A DNA stretch of 64,000 nucleotides from Candidatus Calditenuis fumarioli (GTDB lineage Archaea > Thermoproteota > Nitrososphaeria_A > Caldarchaeales > Calditenuaceae). Both the position numbers and the translations under genes were made by a program. Below the pieces are notes generated by a model. The model saw only the letters and a list, made by a program, of their open reading frames with translations, did no database searches and was not told the origin of the DNA. This document shows positions 34,660-37,722 of this stretch, in pieces; position 1 is the first letter of the stretch; each line of letters starts with the position of its first letter. The DNA lies in assembly GCA_030059665.1 (NCBI GenBank), contig JANVYR010000001.1, positions 256,001 to 320,000 of the forward strand. Direction: 5' to 3'.

Positions 34660-35355
34660 ATGGGGATAGAGGAGCTGAAGCGATTGCTGGACGAGGTGCT
34701 CGCGTCGATGCCTGAGCTTAGGGAGCTCGGCGACCGGTGCCTGTCGTCGAGGAGGTGGGGTGGGAGCGCGGTGCTGATGGTGGTGGACGCGGCCTTCACC
34801 TCGATCGGGATGTCCTACTTCAGGAGCGTGGTCCCGGCCGTGATCAGGTTCAAGGAGCTCTTCGTCGACACCGGCAGGGTCTCCTCCCTCCTCGAGCTGG
34901 CCTCGATGGAGTCCGACGAGCTGCGAACGGTTTGGAGGAACAGGAGGTCGTGGAGCGTGGCTCGGGAGGTGGCACGTCGGCTCATCTCCTTCGACGGCGA
35001 GGACGACGTTCGGCGCCTCAGGACCTGGGCACTCGGCAGCGATCTGGAAAACTGGCGGGCGGATCCGATCGGCTCGATCAAGGGCGTGGGCCTCGTCACG
35101 TACCAGTACCTCAGGATGATGGGCGGCGTGGATACGGTGATGCCGGACAAGGTGGTGAAGCGGGTGATCAACTCGCTCCTTCGCCAAGCAGGCCTGAACG
35201 AGGTCTGGGACGACCTGGGTTTCGTGAGGGAGGTGGAGAGGCTGGCGGTCCTCACCGGACACAGGCCCGTGGAGCTGACCTGGATGACCTGGCTCCTCAC
35301 GGAGCGGAGGCTGATGGGCGAGCCGAGCTACTCGCGTCTCATCCACCTGATCTGA
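34660..35355 (+). CDS. HhH-GPD-superfamily protein (DNA glycosylase-like)
   Basis: IKGVGLVT helix-hairpin-helix followed by VMPD. Confidence 0.65.
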   Translation: MGIEELKRLLDEVLASMPELRELGDRCLSSRRWGGSAVLMVVDAAFTSIGMSYFRSVVPAVIRFKELFVDTGRVSSLLELASMESDELRTVWRNRRSWSVAREVARRLISFDGEDDVRRLRTWALGSDLENWRADPIGSIKGVGLVTYQYLRMMGGVDTVMPDKVVKRVINSLLRQAGLNEVWDDLGFVREVERLAVLTGHRPVELTWMTWLLTERRLMGEPSYSRLIHLI

Positions 35356-35402
35356 TGTACATCGCCGCGTATCCGCTACGCTGGCCAATTCACTTATACG
35401 GG

Positions 35403-36839
35403 ATGATTCGAGTTTTGGGCGAAGGTGAGTCGCTCTTGAGCAGGTCCGGATGGCTCGTCCCGGTCGCGCTGCTCCTCCTGCTCTCCTTAACACTTCACCA
35501 GGTCGACGCGATCACCTACAACTCGCTGATCGACGACGGCAAGCTTTCCATCACGTTCAACTATCCGAGCGAGGTGAAGAGGGGGACGTGCTTCAACGTC
35601 CGGGTCGAGGCGAACGCTCTCGTTGCGGTCACAGACCTCAACGTCACGGTCTCCATCGAGCTGAGGTCAGGCCCCTCGGTCTACGTCCTCTTCTCGGGGA
35701 AGGTCGTCGACGACTGGAGCGGAGGTCCGGGACCGGTGACCAACAACGTCGTGGGAGCCTGCGTCTCCAGCTCCCATCCCGTCGGGATCGTGATCCTCAG
35801 GACCTCCATCGAGTACGATCTCGGGTCGGATAGGCTCACGCTCGATAACTCGTTTCTGATGGCGAGCGTCCGGGACACGACCTACGACGAGCTGGCTGCG
35901 CTCTACTCGGCGGCTCAGTCAGAGATCTCAAGGCTCAGGGCGGCGATGGGCGAGATGGGGCGTGAGATCGATAGGCTCAGGGCGCAGGTCTCGGACCTCA
36001 TGTCGCAGGTCTCCGTGCTGAGCGATAGGCTAGAGCAGATGAGGACGAGGTACGACGAGCTTCAGTCCGCATACAACGCGCTCCTCGCGCAGTTCAGGGA
36101 CCTACAGGACAGGTACGTGAGGCTCCAGCAGGAGCACGAGAGGTTATCGAGGGACTACGCGGCCCTTCAGGCGAGGGAGTCGGACCTCAGGGGAGCCTAT
36201 GCGGGGCTCCAAAAGGAGCTCGATGCGCTCAGGTCGGAGTACGCTGAGCTCCAGAAGCGGCACGCAGCGCTCAACGCGCTCCACGACGACCTGAGGAAGA
36301 GATTCGAGGAGCTGAACTCGGCGTATCAGGACGCGGTGCGGCAAATCGGCTCCCTCTCGGGCGCTCTCGAGGAGAGGGGTAGGCAGATGGAGGTCCTCAC
36401 GGCGATGCTGGACAACGCGCTGAGGGAGAGGAACGTCTTCAGCAACATAGTCATCGCGCAGGCGCTCGGCCTCGGCGGACTCGGTGCCCTTTACATGATC
36501 GAGAGGAGGAGATTGAGGAGGCCCGGGTCGTCCCAAGCTGCGCCGGGCGTGGAGGCGCCTGAGGGCGGTTCCGGGGCACCACCGACCCCGTCACCTGAGC
36601 TGGCGAACATCGGGCCCGATGAGAACAGGCAGGATAACGGGAACGGCGGCATGGTCCAGAGGGTGATCTCGGGGAGGAGGATCACCATACCGAAGAAGGT
36701 CGCGGAGCTTCTGGGGATAGAGGTGGGTGACCCGGTGGAGCTGGGCGTGGTGGGCGACGCGATCTTCGTCAGGAAGCTTGCGAGGCGAGGAGACGGTCCA
36801 CCTCCATCTGAGCCTGACGGACCTTCTCGACGCTCCTGA
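35403..36839 (+). CDS. Secreted domain + coiled coil + TM + C-terminal AbrB-like domain protein
   Basis: Signal peptide (WLVPVALLLLLSLTL..VDA), beta-rich domain, about 190-aa heptad stalk, TM followed by ERRRLRR, then GRRITIPKKVAELLGIEVGDPVEL. Confidence 0.8.
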   Translation: MIRVLGEGESLLSRSGWLVPVALLLLLSLTLHQVDAITYNSLIDDGKLSITFNYPSEVKRGTCFNVRVEANALVAVTDLNVTVSIELRSGPSVYVLFSGKVVDDWSGGPGPVTNNVVGACVSSSHPVGIVILRTSIEYDLGSDRLTLDNSFLMASVRDTTYDELAALYSAAQSEISRLRAAMGEMGREIDRLRAQVSDLMSQVSVLSDRLEQMRTRYDELQSAYNALLAQFRDLQDRYVRLQQEHERLSRDYAALQARESDLRGAYAGLQKELDALRSEYAELQKRHAALNALHDDLRKRFEELNSAYQDAVRQIGSLSGALEERGRQMEVLTAMLDNALRERNVFSNIVIAQALGLGGLGALYMIERRRLRRPGSSQAAPGVEAPEGGSGAPPTPSPELANIGPDENRQDNGNGGMVQRVISGRRITIPKKVAELLGIEVGDPVELGVVGDAIFVRKLARRGDGPPPSEPDGPSRRS

Positions 36840-37722
36840 CCAGGGCCTCCCGCTCCTCGGGGCTCAGCTCGAGCTCTATCACCCTCTTGACGCCCGTCCT
36901 CCCGATCACCGCCGGCACCACCGAGCAGACCCCCTCGAACCCGTACTCGCCCATGTGGTAGAAGGAGACGGGGATCACCGCGTTCCGGTCCCTGACGATG
37001 GCGTCCACCATCAGCGCCGCGCCAGCACCCGGGGCGTGGTGTGCGGACCATCCCTTGAGCGAGATGATCCTGGCACCCATCTCCCTCGTCGCCTTCACGA
37101 CCTCCTCGATCTTCTCCTTGCTGAGGAGCGAGGTGAGAGGTCTCCCTCCTACAGTAGTGTGCCTCGGGAGGAGCACCATGGAGTCGCCGTGCTCGCCCAG
37201 GATCGGGGCCTCGATCGAGTTCCAGGAGACGCCGAGCTCCTTAGCGATCAGCGTCTTGTACCTCCCCACGTCCAGCAGACCGCTGAAGCCCATCACCCTC
37301 TCCCTCTCGAAGCCAGTCGTCTTGAGGGCGACGTAGGTCATGACGTCGAGCGGGTTGGTGACCACTATCACCTTCGACTTCGGGGCGTGCTCCCTGATCT
37401 TGAGCGAGACGTCCCGGATTATCCCGGAGTTCTTCACGAGCAGGTCCATCCTGGTCATGTCCGCCTTCCGGACGAACCCGGCTGTGACCACCACCACCTC
37501 CGAGCCCTCGATGTCCCTGTAGTCGTTGGTGCCCGTGAACTCGACGTCGAGTCCCAGGATCGCGGCCATGTGGTTCAGGTCGAGCGCCTCACCCTGGGGA
37601 AGCCCCTGCACGATGTCCACCAGAACTACGTCACCCAGCTCCCTCAGACCGATGTGGAGCGCGGCCGAGGTGCCGACCCTTCCGGAGCCGATCACGGCTA
37701 TCTTGGGCCTCATACCACGCAT
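36769..37722 (-). CDS. mdh: Malate dehydrogenase (LDH-like)
   Basis: GSGRVG, TAGFVRKADMTRMDL, VTNPLD, GEHGDS. Confidence 0.93.
   Translation of the reverse strand: MRGMRPKIAVIGSGRVGTSAALHIGLRELGDVVLVDIVQGLPQGEALDLNHMAAILGLDVEFTGTNDYRDIEGSEVVVVTAGFVRKADMTRMDLLVKNSGIIRDVSLKIREHAPKSKVIVVTNPLDVMTYVALKTTGFERERVMGFSGLLDVGRYKTLIAKELGVSWNSIEAPILGEHGDSMVLLPRHTTVGGRPLTSLLSKEKIEEVVKATREMGARIISLKGWSAHHAPGAGAALMVDAIVRDRNAVIPVSFYHMGEYGFEGVCSVVPAVIGRTGVKRVIELELSPEEREALVRSVEKVRQAQMEVDRLLASQAS

Follow-up and report, generated by a model that had tools for sequence, protein, structure and literature searches.

What would an archaeal cell do with a DNA-binding domain carried on the inner end of a long extracellular stalk? 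The question is raised by a single gene of Candidatus Calditenuis fumarioli, located in a 64,000-nucleotide (nt) stretch of contig JANVYR010000001.1 (assembly GCA_030059665.1, positions 256,001 to 320,000), hereafter called the window. The original prediction placed a signal peptide, a β-rich domain, a coiled coil, a transmembrane (TM) helix followed by ERRRLRR, a linker, and an AbrB domain in one open reading frame (ORF), and each of these segments was found in that ORF where it had been placed. It also proposed that this protein, referred to here as stalk-AbrB, connects the envelope to DNA as a chromosome tether or an envelope-stress sensor. The reading that we favor, with a probability of about 50%, is that the protein is a membrane-tethered, self-regulating AbrB protein fused to a stalk resembling that of the surface-layer (S-layer) protein SlaB.

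We examined whether the two halves of the protein belong together. The forward-strand frame was open from 34737 to 36839, with no stop codon or frameshift within it in the ORF reading of the window. A search of 5.8 billion proteins yielded 44 clusters with 46–100% identity, 39 of which were full-length (456–487 amino acids [aa]) and the rest shorter, and PF04014 was present in all full-length clusters except P0042. The named sources of the clusters were Caldarchaeales, Candidatus Calditenuis, and hot-spring Nitrososphaerota/Thaumarchaeota metagenome-assembled genomes, and the NCBI name for the members, AbrB/MazE/SpoVT family DNA-binding domain-containing protein, gives nothing further. Contigs from three other metagenome studies covered 35973–36900 and showed zero differences or indels in the TM-linker-AbrB part. 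Met417, the candidate internal start, was Leu, Ile, Val, or Ala in relatives. In one relative, G017, the gene appeared split at first, but the split was due to a run of N in the record. The fusion was retained in three of the four Caldarchaeales families, down to approximately 25% identity, and the refuting condition of the original prediction, a stop after the TM helix in orthologs or reads, did not overturn it. It is thus almost certainly wrong to regard the fusion as an artefactual merger of stalk and AbrB genes through faulty assembly or a shifted frame, or the AbrB domain as translated alone from ATG 36651: the fusion occurs in clusters from independent sources (38 of 39 full-length clusters), the junction is spanned unchanged by uninterrupted contigs, and the internal Met is not conserved.

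The C-terminal domain was a member of the AbrB/MazE/SpoVT family by profile scores. PF04014 matched aa 426–461 with 36.7 bits when aa 400–478 were used as the query and with 32.6 bits when the whole protein was used (cut-off, 24.7), and TIGR01439 matched with 32.3 bits (cut-off, 28.3); residue numbers are counted from ATG 35403. Orthologs with 25–30% identity also cleared the cut-offs of the AbrB families. The motif SGRR(I/V)T(I/L/V)P, with LG..GD downstream, was nearly invariant, the exception being AGRR in ortholog L022. Conservation reached the maximum of the whole protein (0.81) in the SGRRITIP stretch, which comprises the first AbrB strand and the loop, versus 0.47 in the head and stalk. 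The Gly-Arg of SGRR aligns with G14-R15 of Bacillus subtilis AbrB, which we take to be a DNA-contact residue. The profile of the domain matched AbrB, MazE, Sso7c4 (2L66), and the CDC48-N barrel about equally and weakly, and its monomer model consisted of a helix and two strands with a predicted local distance difference test score (pLDDT) of 52–74. A complex prediction for two copies of aa 300–478 with an alignment scored 0.29 (mark, 0.42) and provided no evidence either way. In neighboring chains, two AbrB domains would most likely associate as the swapped-hairpin dimer usual for this fold.

Four other AbrB domains are encoded in the genome (G000:C1:401401, C1:567962, C1:668941, and C2:566386), all at the N-terminus of frames of approximately 340–370 aa. 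Their motif is of the LPKEW type, their C-terminal part is long and presumably of the archaeal AbrB-PhoU-like kind, and in sequence type they differ from the tethered domain. These four are ordinary cytoplasmic proteins.

Among 40 genomes sampled from three Caldarchaeales families, a head-profile search detected a single stalk gene in each of 37, and it detected none in the two genomes of the fourth family. A profile search of 1.84 billion representatives returned only 20 clusters. The gene behaves as a single-copy core gene and not as an accessory sensor. The AbrB domain was present in genera g1, g3, g4, g9, g10, g11, and g12 and in part of g6. In g7 and the remaining g6, the protein ended shortly after the TM helix, in g7 right behind the poly-Pro stretch, and the TM helix of g7 was not Gly-rich. 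The maximum-likelihood tree of the core required two changes, with the AbrB-less clades nested inside AbrB-bearing ones; AbrB was lost twice, once in g7 and once in part of g6. No detached copy of this AbrB type was found in the AbrB-less genomes, which contained only generic AbrB domains at approximately 20 bits, and a search limited by its word index found no other long protein with a closely related AbrB domain beyond the stalk-AbrB family.

Outside Caldarchaeales, weaker head matches (E-values of 1e-14 to 6e-20) were found in frames of 338–438 aa that contained a signal peptide, a head, a shorter coiled coil, a TM helix, a basic cluster, and a poly-Pro tail, and lacked AbrB. An AbrB-less sister family is made up of the Thermofilum pendens hypothetical protein P0064 (342 aa; L047, G174:C1:947089-948114) and 15 metagenomic relatives. 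Because AbrB is absent from these distant homologs and was lost twice, the stalk works without it; AbrB is an add-on, and the stalk clearly has a function of its own. The simplest history would start from an old stalk-TM-poly-Pro scaffold to which AbrB was added close to the root of Caldarchaeales, followed by two losses.

The evidence connecting the AbrB domain to a particular DNA site came from the promoter region, which contains an 11-mer, GTAGCGGATAC, upstream of a TATA-like word. The 11-mer had one exact copy in the 1.57-Mb genome versus 0.30 expected, and this was the sole match in the window. In a pattern search of 41 related genomes, 0–2 copies per genome were found, similar to a reversed-pattern control. 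In family f1, all seven genomes with the 11-mer (that of the window, G001, G003, G008, G010, G012, and G017) had a single copy, located within approximately 100 nt upstream of the stalk-AbrB gene. These seven genomes represent two genera whose proteins are approximately 30% identical and whose upstream genes differ; in the clade of the window, the 11-mer is inverted and follows another upstream gene. In the ortholog upstream regions, GTAGCGGATAC lay 12–14 nt upstream of the TATA-like word, with TTAAATA or AATTATA at the equivalent position. In the other families, exact 11-mer matches lay elsewhere in the genome and were chance-like.

The core of the motif, GTAGCG/CGCTAC, was found upstream of the gene in eight of nine AbrB-bearing genus-level lineages versus none of the 11 AbrB-less orthologs of the order, with a background of 0.04–0.08 per 150 nt. 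The clearest comparison was provided by the alignable promoters of g6. In both AbrB-bearing species of this genus, the TATA box is flanked by the two arms of a perfect inverted repeat (GTAGCG-N20-CGCTAC), whereas both half-sites had decayed in all four AbrB-less species, for example from CGCTAC to CGTTAT or TATTAT. GTAG words were repeated at approximately 10-nt spacing in the promoters of g9 and g6.

One-mismatch copies of the 11-mer in the genome numbered nine, as expected by chance, and all but one or two were inside long open frames, one of which was inspected as a gene; no regulon was visible from these copies. Since they occur at the chance level and mostly in open frames, the site looks dedicated to the stalk-AbrB gene. 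A genome-unique, promoter-specific motif that co-varies with AbrB points to binding at the protein's own promoter and not to a general chromosome tether. A scan for sigma-70 promoters and terminators found nothing; this type of scan is not applicable to archaea. One of the one-mismatch copies (G000:C1:764368; L054:1869-1902) had flanks similar to the stalk promoter, approximately 26 of 34 positions being identical by eye, and a TATAT word. It sits inside a minus-strand methyltransferase-like gene of 251 aa and may be a chance match or a second site.

Soluble AbrB, MazE, and VapB proteins regulate their own genes. In the mechanism that we propose for stalk-AbrB, an immunoglobulin (Ig)-like head would be carried outside the cell on a rigid coiled-coil stalk of approximately 28 nm, and a flexible cytoplasmic linker of 40–60 aa would carry the AbrB-type domain, which was probably acquired by the common ancestor of most Caldarchaeales. 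The AbrB dimer would recognize the operator (GTAGCGGATAC, core GTAGCG/CGCTAC), a short site that adjoins or surrounds the TATA box of the same gene, and transcription of the gene would in this way respond to how much stalk protein the membrane contains or to its state of assembly. Autorepression would be the simplest form of this feedback and is suggested by where the operator lies relative to the TATA box. The stalk protein would thereby set its own density in the membrane, and the locus would be held at the membrane.

The coordinates of the gene, its promoter elements, and the protein segments are listed in Table 1. The frame could also begin at an in-frame ATG at 35403, which would give 478 aa (P0001). 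Because homolog N-termini align to the TTG codon at 35436, AGGTGAG precedes this TTG, and the TATA-like TTATAC lies only 4 nt upstream of ATG 35403, TTG 35436 is the likely start codon.

Table 1. Promoter elements, coding sequence, and protein segments of the stalk-AbrB gene. Columns: feature, window coordinates, strand, basis or remark.
Candidate operator	35365..35380		11-mer GTATCCGCTAC (reverse complement GTAGCGGATAC) at 35369-35379, inside CGCGTATCCGCTACG
TATA-box-like TTATAC	35394..35399	+	14 nt downstream of the 11-mer; assigned from sequence
Shine-Dalgarno-like AGGTGAG	35423..35429	+	7 nt before TTG 35436; likewise a sequence-based call
Stalk-AbrB coding sequence	35436..36839	+	467 aa from TTG 35436; homologs begin there
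Sec-type signal peptide, aa 12-36	35436..35510	+	basic n-region, Leu-rich core, V-D-A before the mature end
Head, Ig-like/arrestin-like β sandwich, aa 37-160 (~125 aa), predicted extracellular	35511..35882	+	AlphaFold 2 (AF2) model, invariant columns
Coiled-coil stalk, aa 161-347, predicted extracellular	35883..36443	+	187 aa, 26.7 heptads, ~28 nm
Gly/Ala-rich TM helix, aa 348-366 (AQALGLGGLGALY), and ERRRLRR, aa 367-373	36444..36521	+	small-xxx-small pattern; positive-inside
Pro/Gly/Ser-rich linker, aa 374-416, predicted cytoplasmic	36522..36650	+	low complexity, pLDDT 29-37
AbrB/MazE/SpoVT swapped-hairpin-type domain, aa 417-462	36651..36788	+	exceeds both family cut-offs (PF04014, TIGR01439)
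C-terminal tail (GDGPPPSEPDGPSRRS) and stop codon	36789..36839	+	overlaps 3′ end of the convergent malate/lactate dehydrogenase gene

The signal peptide had a hydrophobic peak of 1.82, A36 was invariant, and the residue at −3 was small throughout the family; cleavage is predicted after V-D-A. When the head was modeled alone with a 20-sequence alignment, AF2 gave a β sandwich with a pLDDT of 93.1 and a predicted template modeling score (pTM) of 0.84. The Cys pair C63/C120 and the word YP.EV were invariant throughout the family, and an N-V-T sequon in the head was conserved inside the genus of the window. The invariant Cys pair fits an extracellular, disulfide-bonded head. The best fold matches (VIA) were arrestin, Vps26, RbmA, and MG/CARDB-type sandwiches, with Z scores of 9–10.8, and unnamed archaeal clusters in the ESM Atlas matched with TM scores of 0.81–0.83. 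No Pfam family matched the head. The fold searches (Foldseek PDB, VIA wide, and ESM Atlas) returned only generic Ig-like, arrestin, MG, and CARDB sandwiches, from which no function follows, and identified no ligand site.

The stalk is predicted to be a single helix spanning aa 161–350, with one heptad register kept across 187 residues. Of its 26 d positions, 20 were Leu and two were Met. The distance from head to TM helix in 24 family members was 180, 187, 194, or 201 aa, that is, it varied in whole-heptad steps, and the stalk indels among homologs were 7, 7, and 14 aa. These steps argue for one continuous rod of approximately 27–30 nm that preserves the phase between head and membrane. The a positions (aa 161–345, window 35883–36437) were mostly Tyr, His, or Phe, an unusual composition that forms a family-conserved "tyrosine zipper." Pfam and NCBIfam matches over aa 160–345 (SMC, Rad50, ATG16, ZapB, arcadin-4, and others) were far under their cut-offs and were rejected as coiled-coil noise.

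The TM helix was the second most conserved segment, behind only part of the AbrB domain. Because the signal peptide, the head Cys pair, the N-V-T sequon, and the five Arg among the seven residues after the TM helix all indicate the same orientation, the protein is probably a type I, N-out/C-in bitopic envelope protein. The linker varied from 25 to 64 aa across the family, and the poly-Pro stretch that follows the TM helix was also present in AbrB-less and distant homologs. The C-terminal tail, ending in PSRRS, was conserved within the genus.

Several points weigh against self-regulation by a tethered AbrB domain. The exact 11-mer is limited to one family, and elsewhere only the 6-mer core or GTAG repeats were found; one AbrB-bearing genus, g4, showed no core upstream of the gene. 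The motif was found by inspection, the related genomes are not independent, and only two independent losses of AbrB are available. DNA binding by the tethered domain is suggested indirectly, by a conserved, genome-unique promoter motif that was lost together with it, and another regulator could bind this motif. R23/R24 of B. subtilis AbrB, located after the helix, correspond to Ala-Glu here, as in MazE-like members. A trimeric stalk, as in SlaB, would mismatch a dimeric AbrB. Finally, AbrB was dispensable in two lineages, which assigns the main role of the protein to the stalk.

The alternatives differ in what the AbrB domain would do at the inner end of the stalk. If the AbrB dimer bound DNA with little sequence preference, in the manner of Sso7c4-type chromatin proteins, it would link the chromosome generally to the envelope, comparable to a prokaryotic version of the SUN-domain/LINC bridges, and the motif would be that of another regulator. 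A structural spacer is suggested by the stalk design and its quantized length, the AbrB domain carries a net positive charge (counted by eye), its profile matches Sso7c4 about as well as AbrB and MazE, and the long flexible linker would suit reach into the nucleoid. However, a genome-unique, promoter-specific motif that disappears alongside AbrB is unexpected for non-specific binding, and the domain was lost twice while the stalk was kept; such a general tether is quite unlikely. The barrel may instead bind no DNA and act as a heat-stable cytoplasmic lock of the stalk chains or as a dock for a partner, comparable to MazE/VapB or the CDC48 N-domain, with the motif being bound by an unrelated factor. 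This role is in line with profile matches that are equally weak for MazE, AbrB, and the double-psi barrel of CDC48-N, with the missing R23/R24 equivalents, and with the conserved PSRRS tail, and the ancestral cytoplasmic part, consisting only of a poly-Pro tail, suggests a protein partner. On the other hand, the most conserved residues are those of the basic loop SGRR and not the dimer core, motif and domain were lost together in two lineages, and no toxin or conserved partner gene lies nearby. We therefore consider a role without DNA binding unlikely.

Stalk-AbrB might also be a one-component sensor, in which the head would sense an envelope or environmental cue and the signal would reach DNA either through a change in oligomerization or through intramembrane proteolysis that frees the AbrB tail to regulate other genes as well. 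ToxR and CadC are likewise bitopic and have their DNA-binding domain in the cytoplasm, and the Gly-rich, strongly conserved TM helix, which is not Gly-rich in the AbrB-less g7, could be a substrate of an intramembrane protease. A leucine zipper of 26 heptads is, however, likely to be constitutively oligomeric, the head fold is generic with no ligand site identified, the gene behaves as a single-copy core gene rather than an accessory one, and the one-mismatch sites reveal no regulon; a sensor of this kind is improbable. A further possibility starts from the mismatch between trimeric stalks and an AbrB domain that forms dimers only. The tails of neighboring stalks would then pair into a submembrane lattice clamping specific DNA, so that the envelope and chromosome would be mechanically coupled and strain or assembly would be read at the promoter; this picture is speculative and has a low probability. 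Taken together, the envelope-to-DNA link put forward in the original prediction is plausible and has comparative support, but the evidence favors a specific site at the protein's own promoter over the general chromosome tether or stress sensor proposed there, and no result of the analysis pointed to the sensing of envelope stress.

Stalk-AbrB was compared with known systems. SlaB, the S-layer stalk and anchor of Sulfolobales, consists in Sulfolobus acidocaldarius of β sandwiches, a 132-aa helix that forms a coiled coil of three chains, and, at the very C-terminus, a TM helix at aa 448–470 (eLife 2024, PMC10903991). Both proteins have a signal peptide, N-terminal β sandwich(es), a long coiled-coil helix, which is perpendicular to the membrane in SlaB, and a single TM helix after it. 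However, SlaB has three sandwiches and a 132-aa stalk, versus one sandwich and 187 aa here, and it ends at the TM helix, whereas stalk-AbrB adds approximately 110 cytoplasmic residues including AbrB. SlaB is a trimer that anchors SlaA, and no slaA-like gene adjoins the stalk-AbrB gene. The SlaB family model NF040788 reached 25 bits, where its cut-off is 700, and aligned with nothing but the coiled coil, so there is no detectable homology: the likeness to SlaB noted in the original prediction holds for the design and not for descent.

The tethered domain shares the Gly-Arg of the hairpin loop, the LG..GD box, and the PF04014/TIGR01439 signatures with B. subtilis AbrB (1Z0R), MazE (1UB4), and Sso7c4 (2L66), and it resembles MazE, VapB, and AbrB in having an apparent operator at its own promoter. 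It lacks equivalents of R23/R24 of B. subtilis AbrB. Known AbrB-type domains occur in soluble proteins, where they either make up a small protein or form the N-terminal domain, whereas this domain is C-terminal and tethered to the membrane through a disordered linker. Membrane-bound one-component regulators with an N-terminal winged helix-turn-helix (wHTH) or HTH domain and N-in topology include ToxR, CadC, and TcpP of bacteria and ArnR of Sulfolobus. Like these proteins, stalk-AbrB would be bitopic, with an extracytoplasmic domain and a cytoplasmic DNA-binding domain flexibly linked to the TM helix. In contrast to them, it would be of type I, its signal peptide is predicted to be cleavable, and its AbrB fold lies at the C-terminus. 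Where the ToxR type has a compact sensor outside the membrane, stalk-AbrB has a predicted 28-nm coiled-coil rod, and the sole candidate target found for stalk-AbrB is its own promoter. The P0064-type proteins of Thermofilum pendens and its relatives share the homologous head, coiled coil, TM helix, basic cluster, and poly-Pro stretch, but they have a shorter stalk, no Cys pair, no AbrB, and no assigned function.

The genes neighboring stalk-AbrB encode a prefoldin subunit, an uncharacterized 231-aa protein, malate dehydrogenase, and PmbA/TldD. The 231-aa ORF (window 34660–35355, forward strand) lies directly upstream, matches no Pfam family, and was kept in the closest relatives only; a D-2-hydroxyacid dehydrogenase gene replaces it in other members of the genus and in g3. 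Downstream, the convergent malate/lactate dehydrogenase gene (36769–37722, reverse strand) overlaps the 3′ end of the stalk gene by 71 nt (36769–36839). This convergent arrangement was kept in g1 and g3, mostly with overlapping ORFs, and is limited to one family; in another family, a convergent ThiF-rhodanese gene lies beside the stalk gene. Across the order, no conserved operon partner was found, nor was a toxin gene or other conserved partner gene found nearby.

Outside the window, G000:C2:161274-168686 (reverse strand) contains an ORF of 2470 aa that encodes a signal peptide, carries 45 N-X-S/T sequons, and has a strongly hydrophobic C-terminal anchor; its product is likely a giant surface protein of the S-layer type in this organism. 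It is plausible that this protein forms an outer layer within reach of the stalk tip, although nothing links the two.

Transcription factors bound to the membrane have been described, as have stalks of the S-layer type, but no report of both in one polypeptide was found. Our literature searches yielded no report of a membrane-anchored AbrB domain, of the stalk-AbrB family, or of an S-layer stalk of Aigarchaeota. If the tail binds its own promoter, the gene and its product would form a minimal circuit in which a structural protein of the envelope counts itself, and they would provide an unusually simple system for studying the attachment of a locus to the membrane in archaea. If the coupling through a lattice of paired tails were true, it would be a prokaryotic counterpart of the SUN/LINC bridges. 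Through this family, Caldarchaeales and other Thermoproteota such as Thermofilum, whose envelopes are uncharacterized, are seen to share a conserved but unstudied component of the envelope, and the pairs of species with and without AbrB in one genus offer a ready natural comparison.

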